This document shows positions 2,623 through 39,603 of a stretch of 64,000 bases of DNA, piece by piece. The stretch covers positions 89,942-153,941 of the forward strand of contig JBAYGS010000001.1 in assembly GCA_041666545.1 (NCBI GenBank), written 5' to 3'. Position numbers and translations under genes: made by a program. Within the stretch, counting starts at the first letter, position 1, and each line of letters begins with the position of its first letter. Source of the stretch: Minisyncoccota bacterium. Lineage in GTDB: Bacteria; Patescibacteriota; Minisyncoccia; Phycocordibacterales; JBAYGS01. Under the pieces are notes generated by a model. The model worked only from the letters and a program-made list of their open reading frames with translations, had not been told where the DNA came from and did no database searches.

Positions 2623-3843
2623 ATGCACGTTTCAATTGCAACTGCACCAGGTTCGGCCCATATCAACCCGGGCCAACCCGGTAAGATCAATAACCAGGAT
2701 GTGGTTTTGCGAATCGACCGACCGGATGGTCTGGTCGCCGTCCTCTGTGACGGTTGCGGTTCGCAGCCAAATTCTGCGACCGGCGCCGATATCGGTGCCA
2801 AACTGGTCGCGAAGGCGCTTACAAGTCAGCTCGACCGAGGGGTCGTGCCGGACAAGCTCGACTGGGAGCAAGTAGAATCGGAAGTCTGTGAGCAAATCGC
2901 GGCAATTGCGAAGACGATGACCCGAGGAGATCAGAGGGCCGATTTCGAGAAAACAATCGAATCGACCTTTCTCTTCACGATTATCGCTCTCGTGATTGCT
3001 GGTGATGCGGTTGCAGTGGCTCATTTGGGCGACGGGGTTTTGATTGTTGAAGATGACGCGACCATTTTGGATCCGCCTATCAAGAACAGTCCGCCCTATC
3101 TGGCCTACAATCTGCTCACTAAGACCGCCTATCACGATCCGAATCTGGTGAAGCATCTAAGCTTCACCGTCTTTGTCGCCTTCGACCTCAAGAAACTTGA
3201 AAAGGGTTTGGTTGTGGCGACTGATGGTTTCAAGCCACTTGTCGGCGAGGATTTCCATCATCCGTCTTTAGTTCAGAAGACCAACCTGCAACGCTGGCTC
3301 AACATCCACACAGCCGAGCGAATCGAATCGGGCACGTTTGTTCCCGGGCAGTGTCGCGATGATGTCAGTCTGGTGATTGCCCGCTCTGATGAGGCTCAGA
3401 ATAAGCTTCTGGCTGCGCGTCATGAGATGGTGGTTCTCAAAGGCCAGATCACGAAACTGACTGGCAAGGTTGATGATCTGACCGCCAAGCTCGCTACGAC
3501 CACTGCCGAGGCGAAGGCGTTCGAAGAAGAATGCACAAGCCTCGAAGCTGAAGTCAAAAGGCTAAAAAGGGAGCTCGGCAAGCTTGAAGCTCTGTCGGAA
3601 ATGGCACCGAAACTTTTGGCTAAGGCCAAGGAGTTTGATGGTGTCACCGGACGAGGACAACTTCGGCGTCTCGCCACAGAACTGGTTGAACTGACCAGGG
3701 TCAAGAAGGTGACAGTGAGGCCTCCGGGCTTCCTGGGCACAATCGGTAGCCTACTTTCCGGCAAACCGGCTTCGTCAACCAAAATCGTTGTTGAAGACGA
3801 TGGTGGTGATCCCGGCGGTACGTTTATTACGACCTGTGGCTAG
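2623..3843 (+). CDS. PP2C-family protein phosphatase with C-terminal coiled-coil (TerY-P-like triad member)
   Basis: VAVLCDGCGS and VVATDGF are PP2C metal-binding motifs. The C-terminal heptad-rich region KLTGKVDDLTAKLATTTAEAKAFEEECTSLEAEVKRLKRELGKLEAL is a coiled coil. Upstream promoter: TTGACA-N15-TATATA. Confidence 0.6.
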   Translation: MHVSIATAPGSAHINPGQPGKINNQDVVLRIDRPDGLVAVLCDGCGSQPNSATGADIGAKLVAKALTSQLDRGVVPDKLDWEQVESEVCEQIAAIAKTMTRGDQRADFEKTIESTFLFTIIALVIAGDAVAVAHLGDGVLIVEDDATILDPPIKNSPPYLAYNLLTKTAYHDPNLVKHLSFTVFVAFDLKKLEKGLVVATDGFKPLVGEDFHHPSLVQKTNLQRWLNIHTAERIESGTFVPGQCRDDVSLVIARSDEAQNKLLAARHEMVVLKGQITKLTGKVDDLTAKLATTTAEAKAFEEECTSLEAEVKRLKRELGKLEALSEMAPKLLAKAKEFDGVTGRGQLRRLATELVELTRVKKVTVRPPGFLGTIGSLLSGKPASSTKIVVEDDGGDPGGTFITTCG

Positions 3844-3893
3844 ATCGGAACCAAAATCAAAAAAGGGCTCGCTAAAAGGGCCGGAAAGGAAAA

Positions 3894-4940
3894 ATGTTCC
3901 GCATCAAAGTGCGTGATTGGAAACAACGGAATTTCAAGCAGATTGGTGAGGGTGGCGAAGCCGTCATCTACAAAATGAGAGAAGACTTGGTTGCCAAAAT
4001 CTTCCGTCAGCCGGACGATTTGGAATTCAAGGAAGACGCTGCCTCAAGAGAGGCCGCGAAAGTCAGGCTGGATGAAATGCAAACTAAGCTCCTGGAATTC
4101 CCAACGGATCTGCCGGAGGCTCTGATTGCCCCGACTGCTGTCCTTGTTGATGGTCGCGACGAAGTCTTTGGTTATGTGATGCCGTTTGTCAAAGGCACCT
4201 CACTGGATGCCGAGACCCGAACCGACAGTAAACTTAGCCTGAGAGAGCGGTACAAAGTAATCACCGAACTTCACGACCTAATCTCTGGCCTTCATGCCAA
4301 AGATGTCGTGGTCGGAGATCTAGGCGAGAATAACCTCTTGCTCCGCGAGCAGGATTTGGCGCTTCGGATGATCGATGCTGATAGTCTCCAATTTGGACCC
4401 TATCAATGCCGGACATTTGTGCCCCGTTTCGTCGACCCGAAGATTTTGGGTATCGGCGGAAACGTGGGGCTAGAAATTCCGACGAAACTTGCAAAAGCCA
4501 AAAAGACTCGTTCGACCGGTCGGAAATCTTCGACCCAAACTACCCGAAAGCGGAAAACCAAAAAAGCTGAGAAGCTTATCCCTGAGGTGTCGGCAGTCAA
4601 CAAGGCTGTCTATTCTTTGGTGGCGCCGCACTACAAGCTGGGTGACTGGTACTCCTATTTGGTGACAGTCATGAGGCTTCTTACTTTCACTGATCCGTAT
4701 GCCGGCGTTGTTGCCGGAATGGATCTTAGTGAGAGATTGGCCAACCGCGTCACCGTCTTTGATCCACGGGTAATTTATCCGGAAAACGCCAGGTCCCTGA
4801 AAGAGGTTCCGAGGCCGATTCTTGAGATATTTTTCCAGGTGTTTCATCGTGGTGAGCGGTTTGTACCAGAGAAGGCAGTGTTCGAGTCCCTGTTGGGTAA
4901 GTCATCAGTGTCTGAAAACAAAAAACAAGCCAAGCTTTAG
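3894..4940 (+). CDS. Ser/Thr protein kinase-like protein (TerY-P-like triad member)
   Basis: Glycine loop IGEGGEAVIYK; VAKIF is the VAIK lysine; HAKDVVVGDLGENN is a degenerate catalytic loop; basic K/R-rich linker. Confidence 0.55.
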   Translation: MFRIKVRDWKQRNFKQIGEGGEAVIYKMREDLVAKIFRQPDDLEFKEDAASREAAKVRLDEMQTKLLEFPTDLPEALIAPTAVLVDGRDEVFGYVMPFVKGTSLDAETRTDSKLSLRERYKVITELHDLISGLHAKDVVVGDLGENNLLLREQDLALRMIDADSLQFGPYQCRTFVPRFVDPKILGIGGNVGLEIPTKLAKAKKTRSTGRKSSTQTTRKRKTKKAEKLIPEVSAVNKAVYSLVAPHYKLGDWYSYLVTVMRLLTFTDPYAGVVAGMDLSERLANRVTVFDPRVIYPENARSLKEVPRPILEIFFQVFHRGERFVPEKAVFESLLGKSSVSENKKQAKL

Positions 4941-4966
4941 AGCCTGGCCAACGAGAAAGGAAAAAA

Positions 4967-5740
4967 ATGGCAAATGCTCCAATTCTACGAGGTCAAGGTG
5001 GCCGGAATCCAAAACCAGTCGATGAGATTGATCTGGATTCGTTTCTGGGTGGTGCGACCCCTGGCAATCAAGATAGCGATTCGGATGTGAGCGAGGGCGA
5101 AAATGAACCGACCCCGCCGCGACGCCAAACTTTGGCGCCGCCAACCTCCGACCGCTTGGTTGTCGTCGGGATTCTTCTCGACGACTCTGGGTCGATGAAG
5201 GACGGCAACATCTACAAGTCAGCAATTGATGGTATTCACGTCGGAGTGGAGGCCTTCAGGGGTGCGAGAGGTAGCGACTTCTATCTCATTGTTGAAGGAT
5301 TCAATCAGCTCTACTTCGAAGGTCTGATTGGTGAAGTCACCAAGGACTCATTCAATGCGTATGTACCTAATCACGGTTGTACGCCCCTCGTTGGAACTGC
5401 CATCAGCCTGGTGAAGAAAATGCAACAAGTGGCTGAAGGCTATGCCGCCATGGGAATCTCGGCTAGCACGGCAATGCTTCTCATTACTGACGGCCTGCCC
5501 GATGACCAACCGGCAGACTTCAGGGCGTATGTCGAAAAGGTGGGATATGTCGTTGGGATGGGTTGTGCTCTCCGCATCAACTCCGATCGCCTCGACGAAG
5601 GGGCGGTCAGGGCGTACCATGCCTGCTTTACCGGAATGGGTATCAAGACGATTGTGACACCTGGCGCCGAGCCTCCGGAGATCCGTCATGAAATCAACCA
5701 GTTCAGCCGAAGCGTGGCGGCGATTGCCGGCAACGCCTGA
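4967..5740 (+). CDS. von Willebrand factor A domain protein (TerY-like)
   Basis: MIDAS motif DDSGSM, downstream T and ITDGLPDD, and an N-terminal low-complexity acidic linker. Confidence 0.65.
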   Translation: MANAPILRGQGGRNPKPVDEIDLDSFLGGATPGNQDSDSDVSEGENEPTPPRRQTLAPPTSDRLVVVGILLDDSGSMKDGNIYKSAIDGIHVGVEAFRGARGSDFYLIVEGFNQLYFEGLIGEVTKDSFNAYVPNHGCTPLVGTAISLVKKMQQVAEGYAAMGISASTAMLLITDGLPDDQPADFRAYVEKVGYVVGMGCALRINSDRLDEGAVRAYHACFTGMGIKTIVTPGAEPPEIRHEINQFSRSVAAIAGNA

Positions 5741-5772
5741 AATCGGTTCTCAGTTCTTTTGTTGGATAAGCC

Positions 5773-5800
5773 AGGCCCGATCCTTTGGATCGGGCCTTTT
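5773..5800 (+). terminator. intrinsic terminator after vWA gene
   Basis: aggcccgatcc-tttg-gatcgggcct followed by ttt. Confidence 0.6.
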
Positions 5801-5850
5801 ATATTTCTTAATATATCTTCAATCTCCGATTTTTTAGCCACAATCCCCAC

Positions 5851-5886
5851 CTGCACTAATTCCTGCGATAGCGGGAATTAGTGCAG
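5851..5886. repeat. 13-bp perfect inverted repeat with 10-nt spacer
   Basis: ctgcactaattcc ... ggaattagtgcag, at the boundary between the GC-rich triad island and AT-rich frr. Confidence 0.5.
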
Positions 5887-5977
5887 TCGTAAGTACCCGT
5901 CTAATGCCGAGTTTCGATTTCTCGAGCAATCGGTTATACTGTAGGCATAGTAAATAAACTAACTAAAAATTAAAAAT

Positions 5978-7788: not shown

Positions 7789-8283
7789 ATGAATCCGAAT
7801 CCAGAAGAGATAAAATTCGATAAGAGTGCACAAGCCGAAAAGTTGTTGGCCGATTTGCGACTTTACAATGGCGTGCAAATGAAATTGATGAAGCGAATGC
7901 TAAAAGATCACCCAGGTGGCGCCAGCGCCAATTTTGAAATTTGGGTTGATTGTTGCTCTCCCGAATATCGCGAGGGTTTCTTCCAAATACTAAGGGACGA
8001 TCCAGATTTCCTTAAACGCTACCAGGAATCCGAGGGCGACGCCCTCTCGGCTGTTGAAGACAGGATCGGTATGCTACAAGAATTGGAGAAGCAATTAGCA
8101 ATCAAATTTGCCGGGGAGACTTCAGATAAGGCAATCTCGGATTGGCGCAAGAAAAATGCCAAGAGGCTGATGCAAATTCTGCACGAGAACCAGGAACTAG
8201 CCCTGCCTTTCGTCAATCATACTCATGATGATATTGAGGATGAGCAAGTCGCTCTGCAAAAAATCGAGGAATTGCTGAAGTAA
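7789..8283 (+). CDS. hypothetical protein
   Basis: Clean ORF followed by a strong terminator at 8286-8315. No recognisable motif. Confidence 0.45.
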   Translation: MNPNPEEIKFDKSAQAEKLLADLRLYNGVQMKLMKRMLKDHPGGASANFEIWVDCCSPEYREGFFQILRDDPDFLKRYQESEGDALSAVEDRIGMLQELEKQLAIKFAGETSDKAISDWRKKNAKRLMQILHENQELALPFVNHTHDDIEDEQVALQKIEELLK

Positions 8284-8342
8284 TTAAAAAACCACCCGAT
8301 TTCGCGGGTGGTTTTCGATTTCTCTTGCGTTCTCTTCACTCT

Positions 8343-9116
8343 TCACTTCGTGTCCGGGAATCGAAACCGGACACTGGTGAGCCGAATCGGCGCGCCGTCG
8401 AGGCGGGGCCGAAGATAGTTCATGACCAGCTCCTCGAACCGTTTCTGTTGCTCCTGCCGGAGCGGGTTCGTGAACTCGGCCATTTCTTTGCTGTGCTGAT
8501 CTTGGAAATCATACAACAGCATCGCCAAGTACTTTTTCACGATTTCGTCCTCGGACTTCGTTTCGAAGCCGTACTTTTCGCTGGCCGTCGCCGTGAAGCT
8601 CAAGAGACTTGCCATCTCTGCCAGCGTGCCACCATATGTGAACCTTGTTTCGTACAGGATACTCCGAACTTTTGGGTTCGAGGTTATCGGCACAACATTC
8701 ATTTCCGTCATGGCAGGGTGTGTGTTGTAACTGACCAATCGAAGTCCGTTATTGAGTATCGTCTCATACGAATCACGACTGATAGCCTCTTCGTGCTTGA
8801 ACACGCGATAGACCACAGCCCCACTACGGCTCACCAGTAAGGTGTGCGGGTTGATAAGGACGATCTGTCGCGCCACACCCGTGATATTTCCGTCATGAAA
8901 TGTTCCGACCACCACTCCTCCGAGGATAAGCGCGACAAGGGCCGCAACGGCTCCAAACTCCAATTGATCACCGAAATCGAACCTCTTCGGAAAGCGTCGG
9001 CAAATCAGGCCGACGCCAAAGCCGACGGCAGGGACCAACCCTAACCAGAGGAAGAGACAGAAGTGGGTAGTGCTACAGAGGATGGAAGTGAAGTCTGTCA
9101 TAAGGCCACCTTTCAA
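8343..9116 (-). CDS. membrane-anchored protein, paralog 1 (possibly SPFH/band-7-like)
   Basis: N-terminal TM helices. The C-terminal domain shares blocks with the upstream paralog: NPKV, YxFQxQxSKExAxFxNP and RxxSVxF. GC-rich. Confidence 0.45.
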   Translation of the reverse strand: MKGGLMTDFTSILCSTTHFCLFLWLGLVPAVGFGVGLICRRFPKRFDFGDQLEFGAVAALVALILGGVVVGTFHDGNITGVARQIVLINPHTLLVSRSGAVVYRVFKHEEAISRDSYETILNNGLRLVSYNTHPAMTEMNVVPITSNPKVRSILYETRFTYGGTLAEMASLLSFTATASEKYGFETKSEDEIVKKYLAMLLYDFQDQHSKEMAEFTNPLRQEQQKRFEELVMNYLRPRLDGAPIRLTSVRFRFPDTK

Positions 9117-9203
9117 TTTTTTGGTTTTTGATGTTTACCGTTTCTGCATCGGACTATACACCCAAAAGGGGATAAAGTCAAGCCCTGAAAAACCATTAAA
9201 AAG

Positions 9204-9230
9204 CCCACGTTTTGCACTGCAAAACGTGGG
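9204..9230 (-). terminator. intrinsic terminator between the two paralogs
   Basis: cccacgttttgc-act-gcaaaacgtggg with a T-run on the minus strand. Confidence 0.6.
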
Positions 9231-9250
9231 CAATTGATTCAAATAGGTCC

Positions 9251-10087
9251 TCACTCCAACTGAAACTGAACCGACCTGATTCGAACCCAGCCCTCGGCCA
9301 ATTTCGGCTCGAGATAGGCGCGAACCATTTTCTCGAAGGCAATCTGCTGTTCGTAATCCATCGGATTGCTAAACTTCGCGAGCTCCTTGCTGTTTTGGAA
9401 CTGGAAGTTGTAAAGATGAAACCGGACACAGTCGGCGATGCTGCCCAGGTGCCTTTCCGCTCCCATTTTGCGCTTGAAGGCCGTCGCCTGGACCTTGGCC
9501 CGCGGACTGCCACCTTCGCTGTAAACGATTTGGTAAGAGATTTGCTGGACCTTGGGATTTTCGGTGACTGGTCGAACCACCATGGCGACCTCCACCGTCT
9601 GTTCGTGATAGTCGGTCAGGTGATAGCCCTGGCCGGTCCAGAGCTTCAAATCCGAACGGCGAACAAACTCACCGTGTCGGAAAATCCTCAAAACATGGCC
9701 TTCCCGGTTCTCAAGCATTGTCATGGGTTTGACTGTTTCGAATCGAAACTCTGACAACAGGACAGGCGGCAATGTTCCGAGGAGGACCAACACCATCGAG
9801 AGAATGGACAGTGACAAAACAGTTGCAAAGAACATCACCCGCCGACTCCGGCCGTGAGAGAAGACCGAGTAAAGGGTTGCTTTCTTGCGCACTTGGCGTA
9901 GCAAAATAATTCCACCAAAAAGTACACACAGGCCGCAGAAGACCGGGGACATTAACCAGAAGATGCCTGCACCATCCAAATTTGCGATGTCTAGGCTTAG
10001 TTGATCGAGAAGGTTCATAATTTCAGTCTGATTTGATTTTTTAGGGGAAGTAGCAGTGCCAGATCCCAACGGTTCTATTTCTAACAA
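9251..10087 (-). CDS. membrane-anchored protein, paralog 2 (possibly SPFH/band-7-like)
   Basis: Same architecture and conserved blocks as 8343..9116. Confidence 0.45.
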   Translation of the reverse strand: MLEIEPLGSGTATSPKKSNQTEIMNLLDQLSLDIANLDGAGIFWLMSPVFCGLCVLFGGIILLRQVRKKATLYSVFSHGRSRRVMFFATVLSLSILSMVLVLLGTLPPVLLSEFRFETVKPMTMLENREGHVLRIFRHGEFVRRSDLKLWTGQGYHLTDYHEQTVEVAMVVRPVTENPKVQQISYQIVYSEGGSPRAKVQATAFKRKMGAERHLGSIADCVRFHLYNFQFQNSKELAKFSNPMDYEQQIAFEKMVRAYLEPKLAEGWVRIRSVQFQLE

Positions 10088-34317: not shown

Positions 34318-35073
34318 TTAGAGCAACTTCTCAATATTACCTGTCAGATCCTTCACCCTTTTCCTTTTAGAAAGTCCGAGGGCGATTTCATAGATAGGCC
34401 GGTCCGAGGGCCGAAGGAGAATTGCTTGTCGCTCAAGCGAACGGAATCCACGGAGGTACTGGCGGCTGCGTGCAAACGCCAACCTGATCATTGCAGCTGT
34501 AGCATCTGAGAGGCATAGCTCTCGCTCGATGGTTGCATTTCCATGCAATTTTTCAAGTGTTGAGAGTTTTTGTTTTATCTCTTCAGTGCACAACTCAATG
34601 ATGTTTTTCGAGAGCAAAGCAGGATAGGGAATAAGTAACTCCCTCAAGCGGTCACCGGTGTCGGTTACGTCGTACAAAGTTTCAGCCGTAGCCAAATCTC
34701 CGCACAACGCCTCCGGCAACCAGTACCCGGTAGCCCATGAGCGATGTTGACCGCCCAGGTTCTTGCCCTTGATCCATCCTTCAACCTGCCGAACAAGTAG
34801 GGCCACATCGCAAACTGCGACACCACCCGTACCCGCTGGTAGATCAAAGCGTACGCTATCGTCGCACACGAAAAAGTTTCCATCAGGCCATCGTTTTCTC
34901 AGTAAAGATTCGATGATGGACGAATATGTCTCAATTCTACCCTCATCGCAACCTGCCAAGAGATCAATTTTGCCTTCCGACGAATTCCTCTTCCGTCCGA
35001 CACGTAAGAGCATTTTCATACCCTGCATCTCACGCAGAACGTGAGCAAGATCAGAGGTTACGCTACTTTTCAT
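34318..35073 (-). CDS. hypothetical protein (last gene of overlapping 4-gene operon)
   Basis: 4-nt start/stop overlap with the upstream AlaRS-like gene. GC-rich. No confident motif; possibly a nucleotidyltransferase-like fold. Confidence 0.45.
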   Translation of the reverse strand: MKSSVTSDLAHVLREMQGMKMLLRVGRKRNSSEGKIDLLAGCDEGRIETYSSIIESLLRKRWPDGNFFVCDDSVRFDLPAGTGGVAVCDVALLVRQVEGWIKGKNLGGQHRSWATGYWLPEALCGDLATAETLYDVTDTGDRLRELLIPYPALLSKNIIELCTEEIKQKLSTLEKLHGNATIERELCLSDATAAMIRLAFARSRQYLRGFRSLERQAILLRPSDRPIYEIALGLSKRKRVKDLTGNIEKLL

Positions 35074-36188
35074 AGCGCCCCCTTTCCGCGTTTCGCTTCC
35101 TCAAACCCGATTAAGGCCTTTGGAAAACCGAATGTGGATGCCAGATACTCGATGTCTGATTCGGTTAGAGGGCCATCCCTGTGGTAAACGAGCTTTTGAT
35201 ACTCTTTTCTCCCACGCTCAAGGCCTTTCTCGAATTTTGACACCTCTTCAGCAAATACGGTTTTCACCGTCTCGGCCGAAGACCACTGGTTTCCTGATAT
35301 CATGACAAACTCATCAAATGGAATCGATGCCTGCTGACAGAGGATGAATGCTTCTCGGATAAGTTTCCGAAGAACATAGTCCGCTGCCTTGTTTCCAGGC
35401 CGAAGCCCTTGTGATACCAGGATCACCGCCGCCTTGCCGAGATCGGCTAAGCGACACATGTTGGCTTGATCCTGAACTTTGGATCGTTTAGTGAGAGAGC
35501 TGACCACACCTACCCAGTTCGAGTTTTCATAGTCGCTTCGGCTGCACTCAACGGCAGTTACGATGCGATCAATACTAGCCCCTGAATCGGCAGCAATCAT
35601 CTCCAGCGGAGATTCAAAGAGGACTTCGCCTTGGAATTGGGTAAAGACCAAGTTCCAAAGTTCCATTGACTTCCCTGTGCCTGGATTTTGCCAAACAATC
35701 TCCGTACGAACGCCGCATCGGTTCCGAGTCGGTGTATAAGTGACGTTTCCATCATTGCTGATGATCCTAACACCTAGCCTTTCCCAGATTCTTTGAGACG
35801 TTTCATCTTGTGGGTGCACGGTCGCTGACAGTGTGCTGGGATTAATACCTAAGCACACCGTCAAATATCTCCATGCACTTTCGATCATCACATCCTTCAC
35901 TTCAGCTTCTTTGTCCTCGTAGAGGGAAAAGTGGCCAAGCATGTCGAATGCTAGATGATGCCTTCCTGAACGACCGATTTTCTCCCATCCATCAGTTCTC
36001 AAGCAGGTTTGCACCGAGACGACGCGACTACTTTTGGGAGATGTCCCATTAGAGATCGCGTCTTCGAATACAACTCCACCAGAGATGTTAAACAGGAGTT
36101 TCGGATTTGAACTTGCGATCGGAACACTGTCTTGCCACTTGAAACCGAAGGTCCCGAAGTGGCGCTTTATTTCAGCATACGACTTCAT
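35070..36188 (-). CDS. AlaRS aminoacylation-domain paralog (standalone, divergent)
   Basis: QTCLRTDG..HHLAFDMLGHFSL..IESAWRYLT..ELWNLVFTQFQ aligns with AlaRS QKCIRAGGKHNDLDDVG..HHTFFEMLGNFSFGDY..IQFAWELLT..EIWNIVFMQFNR. No editing or C-Ala domain. Confidence 0.6.
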   Translation of the reverse strand: MKSYAEIKRHFGTFGFKWQDSVPIASSNPKLLFNISGGVVFEDAISNGTSPKSSRVVSVQTCLRTDGWEKIGRSGRHHLAFDMLGHFSLYEDKEAEVKDVMIESAWRYLTVCLGINPSTLSATVHPQDETSQRIWERLGVRIISNDGNVTYTPTRNRCGVRTEIVWQNPGTGKSMELWNLVFTQFQGEVLFESPLEMIAADSGASIDRIVTAVECSRSDYENSNWVGVVSSLTKRSKVQDQANMCRLADLGKAAVILVSQGLRPGNKAADYVLRKLIREAFILCQQASIPFDEFVMISGNQWSSAETVKTVFAEEVSKFEKGLERGRKEYQKLVYHRDGPLTESDIEYLASTFGFPKALIGFEEAKRGKGAL

Positions 36189-37411
36189 GTGGAACCTCCC
36201 ATTGCCAAGTGTTTGAATACAGTCTGCCTGACTGCGTAGGTGAACTTGTTCATCACGGGATGAGTGACAAGTCCGTGGTTAGTGTCCCAACTTACGACAT
36301 GAGCCGGAATCCCGAGATTATCCAATATTGCCTGAGCACGTTCGATGTTCATGGAATATGCTGATCCATGAGCACAGATTTGCCGCTGAGCAAGAGGACA
36401 ACGAGACTCCTCACACTCGTGTCTGGCAAATGCCTGAACCGAAGTGATGCTAGGAATCTTGAGCATCCGAGTAAGCGCGCATGAGGATTTCAGGTATACT
36501 GGAACTCCAGAGAAGTGTTCAGCGCTCAAGGAAAAGATAAAGTCTATCAGATCTTGAGGCAGCATCTTCACATTGTCATTCTTAGGAATTTTTGGCATGG
36601 GAAGTTTGTGAATCTCCACCAGGCCATTTTCGATACCTTCAGTCCAACGCAATCCTCCAGGGATGATCATGTCAATGACGTTGCCATAGTGCTTTTCGAC
36701 CCAGAGCATCATCATTTCGATGCGATCCTTGTTTCCGCTCCATTCAGGAACGATCGGTCGCATGTACCATGCGATGGTGGCACCAGCTTCCTTTGCTTCT
36801 TCAGCATTCAGAAAGCGGTTGTTGTGAGCAGGTTCAATCGTATCAGGATTGTCTGCCCAGCACAGAGACAACATCAAGCCCCGCGTCGCATTTGTGATGC
36901 GGGCGATATCGAGCTTTCTCCCTTTCGGAACGCCACCTTTAGTGACGATCCAAAAGGGATTTCGCAGACCACGTTGCACGAATGCTTCCATGATCTCGAA
37001 TGTGCTATCTGTGACCGGTCCAGGAGCGAACGGTTCAGTGCTTGCGGTTCCGATGCTGATGATTGTCTCATTTGCAACGAAGAATGGATGCTTGATCAGT
37101 TCGTCGATGATTTGGTCAACGGTGAACTGATTGCGTCGCCTCGGTCTTTTCGGCATTGTGCCTTGATCAGCAAGATCCTGATTGGTGTCTTGCACGTGGC
37201 AGTATCTGCACTGCCACGAGCATCCAATCCAGAGATCAATACTCAGTGAGCTGTTAGACACACTGACGCACGAGAGGGGATGATTACTGTCAGGAACAAG
37301 AACTCCATACGTGTATTCACGCACAGAAAATTCTCGGCCCGTAGTCATCCCGTTGATTGTGACACGCGGTTCCGAACTGGCTGCCGCGAAGTATTCCTGT
37401 TTGGAATTCAT
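36185..37411 (-). CDS. radical SAM enzyme
   Basis: CSWQCRYC is the CxxxCxxC 4Fe-4S/SAM motif. 408 aa. Possibly SPL/COG1533-like. Overlaps both neighbours by 4 nt. Confidence 0.65.
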   Translation of the reverse strand: MNSKQEYFAAASSEPRVTINGMTTGREFSVREYTYGVLVPDSNHPLSCVSVSNSSLSIDLWIGCSWQCRYCHVQDTNQDLADQGTMPKRPRRRNQFTVDQIIDELIKHPFFVANETIISIGTASTEPFAPGPVTDSTFEIMEAFVQRGLRNPFWIVTKGGVPKGRKLDIARITNATRGLMLSLCWADNPDTIEPAHNNRFLNAEEAKEAGATIAWYMRPIVPEWSGNKDRIEMMMLWVEKHYGNVIDMIIPGGLRWTEGIENGLVEIHKLPMPKIPKNDNVKMLPQDLIDFIFSLSAEHFSGVPVYLKSSCALTRMLKIPSITSVQAFARHECEESRCPLAQRQICAHGSAYSMNIERAQAILDNLGIPAHVVSWDTNHGLVTHPVMNKFTYAVRQTVFKHLAMGGST

Positions 37412-38145
37412 GTGACAACTCCTTTCAAGTGGTTGATGTTGCGGTTTATTTGTTCTTCCGTCGTCATACCAATGACAACGGATGTTTTAAGCTGCAGGGC
37501 ATCTTTGACGAGCTGCTCGGCGGTGTGACTGGTAAGCAACTTACCCTGGCAGAAAAGACTTCTCAGAAGAATTTCCTTTTTCATCGCGAGTAAAGAAGGG
37601 AGCTGCTTAAGCACCCATTTTTGATTCCGATTGAAAGGAGCTTCGACAACATCAATGTAAGGCAAGACCTTATCACTGATGTCTGATGAAAAATCGTCTG
37701 GCAGAGAAATTCCTACCTTTTTAGCGATACCACTATCCTTCACCTCTTGCAGGTGCTGAAGAATAAACACTGCGTCTGACGACCATGAAGGAAGCCAGTT
37801 GTGCAGTAAGACTGTGTCGATCTGTGTTCTCCTGAGCCTACTCAGTGAGTTCTCTACACTTTGATCGAGATGATCACGCGAGTAGAATTCATTGATTGGA
37901 GCAGGAGCTTTCAAATCAGGTTTTTTGATCGCGGGAATTTTGGTCACAATGACCGCATCTTCCGGCAAGCATGAACCAAGTATCTCTTCAACTTCCCCTC
38001 CACCATAGACAGCCGCCGTATCAAAACGACGAATACCGTAGCTGATGGCGAAAAGTAGAAGCGATTCAATGTAGGCGGGGGACAGATTTTTGAACTGTCC
38101 TCCAAGTTGCCATGTGCCGAAGTAGAGCCGTTCAAACCATTTCAT
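37408..38145 (-). CDS. aldo/keto reductase
   Basis: GTWQLGG and FDTAAVYG N-terminal AKR signatures. Confidence 0.7.
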   Translation of the reverse strand: MKWFERLYFGTWQLGGQFKNLSPAYIESLLLFAISYGIRRFDTAAVYGGGEVEEILGSCLPEDAVIVTKIPAIKKPDLKAPAPINEFYSRDHLDQSVENSLSRLRRTQIDTVLLHNWLPSWSSDAVFILQHLQEVKDSGIAKKVGISLPDDFSSDISDKVLPYIDVVEAPFNRNQKWVLKQLPSLLAMKKEILLRSLFCQGKLLTSHTAEQLVKDALQLKTSVVIGMTTEEQINRNINHLKGVVT

Positions 38146-38310
38146 GTTTTTTCTCCTAATTTTGAGGTTGTTAAAGAGCTTTTAGTTAATTGCTTCTAGC
38201 ATAAGACTATAACAAAATCGGTGCCAGGTCAACTATACTCTTGTCAATAATTAGAATACATGTTAATCTATTCTAGGATTTGAAACCTTAACAAAAGAGA
38301 GGATACTGCA

Positions 38311-39603
38311 ATGAAACTGCCGTACAAGACAACAGAGGAAGTGCGCCAGACATTTCTGGGGCATTTTCTGAAACGTGATCATCGTCTCATCGAGCCATCA
38401 GGGATCATCCCAAAGAACGATCCGACCCTCATGTTCATTAACTCGGGCATGGCTCCGCTCAAGCCCTTCTTCACGGGCCAAGAGAAGCCCCCATCCCCAC
38501 GTCTGACGAATGTGCAGGACTGCATCAGGTTTGTGGATGTTGAAAGCGTCGGCGACTCTTATCACGGAACGAACTTTCGGATGATGGGGTCGTGGTCCTT
38601 CGGAGATTATTTCAAGGAACGAGCTATTGAGCTTGCCTTTGAACTCATTACCGACGGATTCGGAATCCCTGTTGACCGACTTTCTGCCACAGTATTCATG
38701 GCCGACGAAAGTCTACCCGGTGTGCCGAGCGATGAAGAGTCAGCCCGTATCTGGGAAAAGTTCCTGCCACGAGATCGTATCATTGGCCGACCGCCAGTCG
38801 ATAACTTCTGGGGTCCAGCTGGAACCAGTGGTCCATGTGGACCGTGCACTGAAGTTTTTTTTGATCGAGGTGAGGAATTCGCCGAGAAAAAAATCGACGA
38901 CGTGCTGGTTCCTGGGCGGCACATTGAGATCTGGAATGCCGGAGTGTTCATGCAATACTTCAAGGATGAGCAGGGGAATTTTTCCTCGCTTCCTATGAAG
39001 TGTGTGGATACAGGCGCAGGGCTCGAGCGTTTCGCAATGATTCTTCAGGATCGTGCTTCGATTCACGAAATCGATCAGTACGATTTGACCTATCAACTCA
39101 TCAATCAGCGCGTTGGTGATACGGCATGGACACGGGTCATACTTGATCATGTCAAGACCTCGATTCTGATGATTCGGGAAGGTATCGTCCCAAGCAACAC
39201 TCGGGAAGGGTATCTTCTCCGTCGTGCGCTTCGGCGTGCAATGATTGGTGTCTTCCTGCGGGGGATCAATCTGACCATTCTTCAGGAGTGGGCAGACTCC
39301 CTTAGTCAAGTGATTGATAACAAGGACCTGACCTTCCGTCAGAAATCTGTTATTGCTCACTGGCTCAGCGAGGAGCGTGACAGCTTCGAGAAGCTGATGC
39401 GTCGCAGCAGGAAGTATCTCGACAAGATCGTGGCCTCTAAGGAGTTGGATGCGCAACACGCATTCACTTTGAAAACCGGCATAGGCATCCCCGAAGATCT
39501 TTTGGAGGAATTCTGTGTTCGTCAAGGCATTCTGTTTCCGAAGGTTGAGTTCCTTCGACTTATCGGGGAACACCGGAACATCTCTCGTCGGCCGAAGAAG
39601 TAG
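38311..39603 (+). CDS. alaS: alanyl-tRNA synthetase, N-terminal aminoacylation + tRNA-recognition half only (430 aa)
   Basis: FINSGMAPLKPFF, QDCIRFVDVESVGDSYHGTNFRMMGSWSFGDYFK, GPCGPCTEVFFDRG, EIWNAGVFMQYF, VDTGAGLERFAMILQ. Ends with a strong terminator at 39622-39653. No editing or C-Ala domains. Confidence 0.8.
   Translation: MKLPYKTTEEVRQTFLGHFLKRDHRLIEPSGIIPKNDPTLMFINSGMAPLKPFFTGQEKPPSPRLTNVQDCIRFVDVESVGDSYHGTNFRMMGSWSFGDYFKERAIELAFELITDGFGIPVDRLSATVFMADESLPGVPSDEESARIWEKFLPRDRIIGRPPVDNFWGPAGTSGPCGPCTEVFFDRGEEFAEKKIDDVLVPGRHIEIWNAGVFMQYFKDEQGNFSSLPMKCVDTGAGLERFAMILQDRASIHEIDQYDLTYQLINQRVGDTAWTRVILDHVKTSILMIREGIVPSNTREGYLLRRALRRAMIGVFLRGINLTILQEWADSLSQVIDNKDLTFRQKSVIAHWLSEERDSFEKLMRRSRKYLDKIVASKELDAQHAFTLKTGIGIPEDLLEEFCVRQGILFPKVEFLRLIGEHRNISRRPKK

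Follow-up and report, generated by a model that had tools for sequence, protein, structure and literature searches.

What kind of system is encoded by a GC-rich trio of genes lying among housekeeping genes in the genome of a Minisyncoccota bacterium, and does it belong to one of the established classes of phosphorylation-based stress and defence modules? We addressed this question for a stretch of 64,000 nucleotides of contig JBAYGS010000001.1 (NCBI GenBank assembly GCA_041666545.1; positions 89,942 to 153,941, forward strand), which we refer to as the window and to which all coordinates relate. An initial annotation made from the sequence alone had described three consecutive same-strand genes at 2623-5740, i.e. 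a PP2C-like phosphatase with a C-terminal coiled coil, an atypical kinase and a von Willebrand factor A (vWA) protein with a metal ion-dependent adhesion site (MIDAS), and had read them as a TerY-P-like triad in permuted gene order on a compositionally distinct island. Our data suggest that the trio probably represents an accessory operon for a self-contained reversible Ser/Thr phospho-switch of the TerY-P/YegL-PphC-YegI kind, in a minimal form of the candidate phyla radiation (CPR). Three consecutive open reading frames (ORFs) were indeed found on the + strand at these positions, with intergenic gaps of 50 and 26 nt:

2623-3843, + strand: PP2C-family Ser/Thr phosphatase, 406 aa (Pfam and family alignment)
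3894-4940, + strand: YegI-type atypical Hanks Ser/Thr kinase, 348 aa (profile, alignment and predicted structure)
4967-5740, + strand: stand-alone vWA protein, 257 aa (family profile, MIDAS motif and predicted structure)

Pfam alone misses the vWA protein and under-calls the kinase, making family profiles and structure prediction necessary. The kinase matches Pfam Pkinase only with an E-value of 2e-5, which is under the cut-off. A profile built from 24 kinase relatives matches 145 protein-kinase chains in the PDB, and the AlphaFold2 model (pLDDT 86.7, pTM 0.81, residues 190-234 disordered) yields at least 1940 kinase matches in Foldseek. Family profile, predicted structure and fold matches agree that the second ORF is a protein kinase, the kinase fold presumed for it being borne out by the profile as well as by the model. 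The glycine-rich loop IGEGGEAVIYK and the VAKIF motif, both noted initially, are present, and the family alignment of the kinases (A1) is characterised by the G-loop GxGGEA, K35, E61, GD142xxxN147, D161-x-D163, the APE region, DWYS251-254 and R281. The catalytic loop reads VVGD142LGENN147 instead of HRDxxxxN, and the loop ID161AD163S shows a DxD instead of DFG; the corresponding segments of E. coli YegI are VVGDVNQNS and IDSDS. Residues 181-183 (window 4434-4442), at the end of the activation segment, are D-P-K, compared to A-P-E in at least 90% of the family; D-P-K is also observed in one other compact family member (P0026). The other catalytic residues are intact in alignment A1. The kinase contains a disordered insert rich in Lys, Arg, Ser and Thr at residues ~186-238, with 15 K/R and 11 S/T per 55 residues. 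It consists of the catalytic domain only, the chain stopping ~30 residues beyond the domain without any Cys pairs, and sequence, alignment and model revealed no zinc ribbon, OB fold or beta-rich C-terminal extension. Pfam scan and hydrophobicity analysis showed no PASTA, transmembrane or other envelope-sensing domain.

The vWA protein matches the Pfam VWA family only with an E-value of 0.27, below the cut-off. Its family profile finds the vWA domains of PTMP1 (7.7e-7) and TRAP (5.8e-5) in the PDB, and the AlphaFold2 model (pLDDT 86.3, residues 1-60 of low confidence) retrieves ITIH1, TRAP and integrin I domains in Foldseek at 1e-7 to 1e-6. Residues ~62-256 make up the vWA domain, which has a full MIDAS (D72-S74-S76, T139, D175), in accordance with the DDSGSM motif seen initially, which is found here within LLDDSGSMKD. 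Two alignments of 34 and 43 relatives show no variation at D72, S74, S76 and D175 and hardly any at T139. S247 and S249 do not vary in either alignment, nor do F246 and T231 in alignment A3; these residues are positioned at and just ahead of the last helix. The N-terminal tail (residues 1 to ~60) is disordered, acidic and rich in Ser and Thr, and carries an IDLDxFL motif.

The assignment of the first gene as a PP2C-like phosphatase with a C-terminal coiled coil was confirmed by Pfam PP2C_2 (PF13672; 58.5 bits, gathering cut-off 24). The catalytic domain comprises residues ~1-255, followed by the coiled coil (~243-345) and a low-complexity Gly/Ser/Thr tail extending to residue 406. The acidic metal-binding motifs D26, D43-G44, G136-D137-G138, D201-G202 and D246-D247 are invariant among 24 aligned relatives including E. 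coli PphC. Residues ~243-345 are rich in Glu, Lys, Leu and Ala and hit coiled-coil families dozens of times, though weakly; among the relatives compared, this coiled-coil tail is confined to the compact CPR subfamily described below. An association of the trio proteins with the membrane was considered and rejected, a hydrophobicity scan showing no membrane segment in any of the three; the sole hydrophobic stretch of the PP2C protein is a core strand of the domain.

We analysed whether the three genes are conserved as a unit, on which the initial annotation had made its reading depend, and this was the case. Scanning one genome per GTDB species revealed at least 407 loci with kinase relatives, 80 of which were fetched for neighbourhood comparison. 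PP2C, kinase and vWA genes occur in that order on one strand in 64 of these 80, and the PP2C gene lies directly 5' of the kinase gene in almost all. The trio as such is kept by nine distinct CPR relatives whose flanking genes are unrelated, and loci L004-L007 and L085-L088 show it with wholly different neighbours. This compact form is characterised by a PP2C protein of 385-467 aa with coiled-coil tail, a kinase of 295-400 aa, a vWA gene directly following the kinase gene and no fourth gene; all members of the lineage that carry a name are Patescibacteria. The compact kinases fall into 34 clusters at 90% identity. At 50% identity, a search of 1.84 billion representative proteins yields only 7 compact clusters, which are included in the 367 clusters that the wider kinase family has at E<=1e-30. 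A clear gap separates the scores of the compact clusters (337-513 bits) from those of the long form (<=239 bits). All three compact-lineage proteins show 31-54% identity to those of the window, compared to <=33% between the window and the long form, and the unit therefore has co-diverged. Judged from sequence comparison, the compact trio is a rare, minimal form known to date from CPR (Patescibacteria) genomes alone.

The proteins most similar in sequence to the three window proteins are encoded in four-gene loci composed of PP2C, kinase, an isochorismatase/nicotinamidase-like protein and vWA, showing 26-33% identity for the kinase and 20-31% for PP2C and vWA. These loci and the window have the PP2C-kinase-...-vWA order as well as the catalytic and MIDAS residues in common. 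In these commonest relatives the PP2C protein has ~280 aa and the kinase ~620 aa, the long-form kinase carrying a CxxC-x8-CPxC zinc ribbon at ~300-315 and a beta-rich C-terminal region of ~300 aa, both of which the window kinase lacks. Kaur et al. 2020 (PMC7159879) reported kinases of this architecture, combining zinc ribbon and beta-strand-rich domain, whose genes are linked to those for PP2C and vWA. Placed between kinase and vWA, the fourth gene (~350 aa) is predicted to specify a cysteine hydrolase from the isochorismatase/nicotinamidase superfamily, with invariant D57, K220 and C272, a WPxH motif and weak PncA matches. The fourth gene finds no mention in the TerY-P descriptions cited here; its product could be the effector of these larger systems. 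The long-form vWA protein moreover has a conserved C-terminal GGFG tail that is absent from the window vWA. Compared to the four-gene loci, the window lineage has neither the fourth gene nor the zinc ribbon and the beta-rich domain, and has gained the coiled coil of PP2C. We also considered the PP2C coiled coil, the N-terminal tail of the vWA protein and the C-terminus of the kinase as segments shuffled in from the long kinase or the fourth gene, and rejected this as no correspondence was found. As an additional observation, the four genes are arranged as PP2C-kinase-X-vWA in genomes (L008-L083, e.g. L014:5102-9724), X being the fourth gene, and as X-vWA-PP2C-kinase on 62 IMG/VR contigs of ~7-165 kb, many of them from one sample (L089-L164, e.g. 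L101:3643-7698); the fourth gene travels with the vWA gene.

Among characterised systems, the closest resemblance to the window trio is seen in E. coli YegL-PphC/YegK-YegI and the TerY-P triads. In E. coli, one transcription unit likewise comprises these three domains and has the PP2C gene 5' of the kinase gene, the order being vWA-PP2C-(yegJ, on the opposite strand)-kinase compared to PP2C-kinase-vWA in the window. YegI and the window kinase share 27% identity over 196 aa in BLASTP (E 3e-11), and hhalign aligns YegI with the kinase alignment A1 at a probability of 98.7% (E 4e-16) over 238 columns, i.e. the whole kinase domain. Both kinases show the atypical VGDxxxxN loop and a DxD motif (DSD in YegI), rather than HRD and DFG. 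The C-terminal two-pass membrane region typical of YegI is not found in the window kinase, the maximal 19-residue Kyte-Doolittle value of which is 1.22. PphC and the window PP2C protein have all metal-binding motifs in common, although the BLASTP match is not significant and PphC lacks the coiled-coil tail, and YegL shares the MIDAS and the TDG segment with the window vWA. YegI was reported to be an active, autophosphorylating kinase which prefers Mn2+ and for which the DSD motif is essential (10.1101/819920), and PphC was shown to dephosphorylate YegI (10.1101/303594).

According to PMC11090510 and PMC4978471, a TerY-P triad unites a TerY-like vWA protein with a PP2C phosphatase and a Ser/Thr kinase, and TerY-P kinases of the type of Anantharaman 2012 are described with a C-terminal zinc ribbon; the stand-alone anti-phage TerY-P of the type of Gao 2020 has an OB fold on the kinase C-terminus (PMC7699616). 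A metal-sensing phospho-switch was proposed for TerY-P (PMC11090510). TerY-P guards E. coli against T7-like phages (PMC7699616) and P. aeruginosa against Autographiviridae (10.1101/2022.08.12.503731), mostly without cell killing. The domain content of these triads, encountered on ter plasmids, in CoCoNuT/McrBC islands and as stand-alone systems, is exactly that of the window trio. The gene order of the window is a cyclic permutation of the archetype vWA-PP2C-kinase retaining the PP2C-kinase adjacency, in line with the permuted order noted initially. Taking a Klebsiella ter plasmid with the cluster vWA, TerD, vWA, vWA+TerY-C, PP2C and kinase for comparison, hhalign probabilities are 96.8% for PP2C and 86.6% for the kinase, the window kinase being much nearer to YegI than to the Klebsiella enzyme. 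The window trio shares with TerY-P the domain content and the conservation as a unit and differs from it in the kinase extension, the gene order and the genomic association, there being no TerD/ter, McrBC, helicase or nuclease gene beside it. The initial interpretation as a TerY-P-like triad hence holds for the domain content; it does not extend to the kinase extension or to ter and defence neighbours, and the vWA protein is only weakly TerY/YegL-like. The trio is not a new kind of system; it is a rare compact variant of the established TerY-P/YegL-PphC-YegI type.

Several observations weigh against the assignment of the trio to a TerY-P-like phospho-switch. The similarity between the window vWA and YegL is weak (BLASTP 26% identity over 120 aa, E 6e-4; hhalign with A3 81.6% over 47 columns), YegL itself being clearly TerY-like with 32% identity to ter-plasmid vWA proteins (E 2e-16 to these), and alignment A3 reaches only 8% in hhalign against the Klebsiella TerY-C protein. 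The D-P-K sequence in place of A-P-E could weaken the anchor of the activation segment of the kinase. No effector is recognisable in the compact trio. Neither ter and McrBC genes nor restriction, other defence or mobility genes are found beside the trio, the neighbours being housekeeping genes; the flanks of the compact relatives examined likewise contain no ter genes and no DNA/RNA-processing conflict genes (McrBC/CoCoNuT, helicases, nucleases). With PADLOC-DB 2.0.0, no TerY-named match was obtained for the trio. This negative result weighs little because E. coli YegL/PphC/YegI match no such model either, leaving the search without a positive control: the trio gives weak generic kinase matches only (PD-T4-6 at 3e-8, MkoA) and PDC-M21C for PP2C, and the E. 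coli proteins weak PD-T4-6 and MkoA kinase matches alone. An NCBIfam scan of the trio proteins returned only generic or weak matches.

By analogy with the E. coli system, we propose the following model for the phospho-switch. The YegI-type kinase, its catalytic residues being intact apart from the APE position, would autophosphorylate, probably with a preference for Mn2+, and would then phosphorylate partner or target proteins. The PP2C phosphatase would reverse phosphorylation of the kinase and its substrates, thereby switching off or resetting the system as PphC does with YegI. The vWA protein would act as sensor or adaptor, its metal-loaded MIDAS binding an acidic or phosphorylated residue of a partner. 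Candidate phosphosites that might toggle ligand binding are located in the acidic Ser/Thr-rich vWA tail and at S247, S249 and T231. In integrin I domains the last helix shifts on ligand binding. The coiled coil of PP2C and the basic disordered loop of the kinase may assume scaffolding and target binding, which in the larger relatives would belong to the zinc ribbon and beta-rich domain of the kinase and to the fourth gene. Three features were lost in the compact lineage, namely the zinc ribbon/beta-rich domain, the GGFG tail of vWA and the fourth gene; two were gained, namely the coiled coil of PP2C and basic low-complexity segments in the kinases. As these losses and gains coincide, scaffolding and target contact seem to have taken another route instead of disappearing. 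We infer these roles of phosphosites, coiled coil and basic loop from conservation and composition.

The expression of the three genes as a unit is suggested by signals surrounding them:

2525-2553, + strand: promoter-like site TTGACA-17 nt-TATACA (read from the sequence; putative, CPR promoters being poorly known)
5773-5806, + strand: intrinsic-terminator-like hairpin (stem-loop 5773-5797) with T-run, closing the operon (hairpin scan)
5851-5886, no strand assigned: 16-bp inverted repeat/hairpin between the operon terminator and frr (repeat scan)

The promoter-like site, located ~70 nt 5' of the PP2C gene, had been called a consensus promoter, which applies to the -35 element TTGACA (2525-2530), being perfect. 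The -10 element TATACA (2548-2553) matches in 5 of 6 positions and is near-consensus only; the site is not listed by a consensus scan because the last T of this element is absent. The same Shine-Dalgarno sequence GAAAGG precedes each of the three genes, in case of PP2C 9 nt 5' of the start. The terminator postulated downstream was recovered as a hairpin with a perfect 11-bp stem containing 8 G-C pairs and a 3-nt loop, followed by TTTTATATTT. Short gaps, the common GAAAGG and the single terminator indicate that the PP2C, kinase and vWA genes form one predicted operon. The inverted repeat, described initially as a perfect 13-bp repeat, has arms of 16 nt (5851-5866 and 5871-5886) with 15 of 16 positions paired (94% complementary), the outer 13 bp being perfect, and a 4-nt loop. 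When 5741-5977 is folded, the repeat adopts a stable hairpin, the z-score of the entire spacer being -6.4. The repeat was considered as a repeated element or a known RNA, both being rejected: no second copy was found in the window and no match in Rfam, and it lacks a T-run. Possible roles are those of a palindrome bound by a protein or of an RNA hairpin in the frr leader; its assignment to the trio module is uncertain.

The trio is flanked by pyrB and a gene for a secreted protein on one side and by frr, rseP, proS, mreBC and the PBP2 gene on the other. We compared 80 related metagenomic loci with the frr-rseP backbone, most of them also having proS-mreB. None of the 80 carries any gene of the trio within 10 kb upstream, and the trio therefore represents a lineage-specific accessory insertion at a synteny break. 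In this sense the locus is an island, as had been put forward; it is one without signs of mobility, no integrase, transposase or tRNA being found around the trio in the window and a search for flanking direct repeats as insertion scars giving only short matches of 11-22 nt. The supposed compositional distinctness is moderate. The GC content of 52.7%, compared to 46.5% for the window, is the highest of all 3.1-kb segments (z 2.8); however, the tetranucleotide distance has a z of 2.2, with 5% of the segments equally or more deviant, and individual backbone genes are as GC-rich as the trio, e.g. pyrB with 53.1%.

Which physiological role such a phospho-switch would play can be judged from its distribution, its relatives and its neighbours. 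By analogy, a function in stress response or anti-phage conflict would be most likely; this best guess draws on the accessory nature of the module and on the defence against phage by homologous systems. A serious rival, which we nevertheless consider unlikely, is a housekeeping signalling module controlling envelope growth, division or translation in the manner of Stk1/Stp1 or PknB/PstP, with the vWA protein as an adaptor and without any role against phages. It draws on the genes surrounding the trio in the window and on the flanks of compact relatives, which contain Mur ligase, PBP transpeptidase and mraZ/mraW at one locus and pilM, Mur ligase and ruvA at another, and it is in line with the lack of defence genes nearby; vWA-kinase-PP2C operons in stress signalling moreover exist, e.g. 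Deinococcus DRA0331-0334 (10.64898/2026.01.23.701218). Such neighbours are expected by chance, however, since housekeeping genes abound in the small genomes of CPR bacteria, and a housekeeping role fits poorly with the complete absence of the trio from the frr-rseP backbone loci, with its rarity (7 clusters at 50% identity), with flanks varying from genome to genome and with a kinase devoid of PASTA, transmembrane or other envelope-sensing domains. What keeps it serious is the lack of an evident effector together with the housekeeping nature of the neighbours.

A cargo of a phage or mobile element residing in the chromosome, serving the element by superinfection exclusion or host takeover instead of the cell, would account for the position at a synteny break with raised GC, for the unique 16-bp inverted repeat just 3' of the trio and for complete kinase/PP2C/vWA sets on many IMG/VR contigs, most with the fourth gene. 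We regard this as improbable as integrase, transposase, tRNA and flanking direct repeat are missing and the viral collection contains no member of the compact lineage (>40% identity), all viral matches being <=34%; several of the 'viral' contigs are 200-545 kb long and may be cellular. The trio might also be a decaying remnant of the four-gene system without useful function, having lost the zinc-ribbon/beta-rich sensor and the isochorismatase-like gene. Although the kinase is ~300 residues shorter than in the commonest relatives, one whole gene is missing and the APE motif is altered, such decay is very improbable given that the remaining catalytic and the MIDAS residues are intact, none of the reading frames is truncated, each having a good ribosome-binding site, and the compact architecture with the newly gained coiled coil of PP2C is kept among relatives at 31-54% identity, implying long-term purifying selection on the compact form. 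Returning to the phospho-switch with a conflict or stress role, a more far-reaching version, which we consider doubtful, would be a minimal immune or stress sensor specific to CPR: the PP2C coiled coil and the basic loop of the kinase would stand in for the sensor and effector hardware of ordinary TerY-P-type systems, namely zinc ribbon, beta-rich domain and cysteine-hydrolase partner, and the kinase itself would be the effector. If true, this would mean phosphorylation-based defence in ultra-small episymbiotic bacteria and would provide the smallest tractable model of sensing and signalling by a vWA/PP2C/kinase triad.

Beyond the trio, three regions of the window deserve description. The gene directly 5' of the trio (1545-2426) codes for 293 aa; its product has a hydrophobic, signal-like segment at the N-terminus, matches DUF5666 weakly (E 4e-4) and has no counterpart beside the trio in other genomes nor in the frr-rseP backbone loci. 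Most related genomes have rseP and proS side by side or close to it; in the window, ~2.4 kb with a GC content of 51-53% lie between them (7789-10087), encoding a 164-aa protein and two paralogues on the - strand (257 and 278 aa; 34% identity over 166 aa) whose N-termini contain hydrophobic stretches and which match nothing in Pfam. This is a second lineage-specific insertion next to frr-rseP. Both regions were considered as co-travellers of the trio and rejected as they were not found with it in other genomes. The most deviant stretch of the window by tetranucleotides is 34318-39603, which contains two genes for alanyl-tRNA-synthetase catalytic domains, one of 430 aa at 38311-39603 (+ strand) and a paralogue of 372 aa at 35070-36188 (- strand), the latter sharing a - strand operon of four genes with those for an aldo/keto reductase and two proteins lacking Pfam matches.

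As a summary, we describe a compact lineage of three soluble proteins having neither accessory sensor domain nor fourth gene and keeping the catalytic and metal-binding residues. The cited TerY-P papers provide the proposed metal-sensing phospho-switch and the phage-protection phenotypes; the signal perceived by the vWA protein and the targets of the kinase are not stated there. The reduction to three soluble proteins with intact catalytic residues makes the trio a clean minimal system for biochemistry and structural work. The four-gene loci with their predicted hydrolase, also present on putative phage contigs, may indicate the missing effector of the larger systems. For CPR bacteria, the trio adds a candidate accessory stress or defence module, its main value being that of a minimal model and of a CPR example of the vWA/PP2C/kinase triads.

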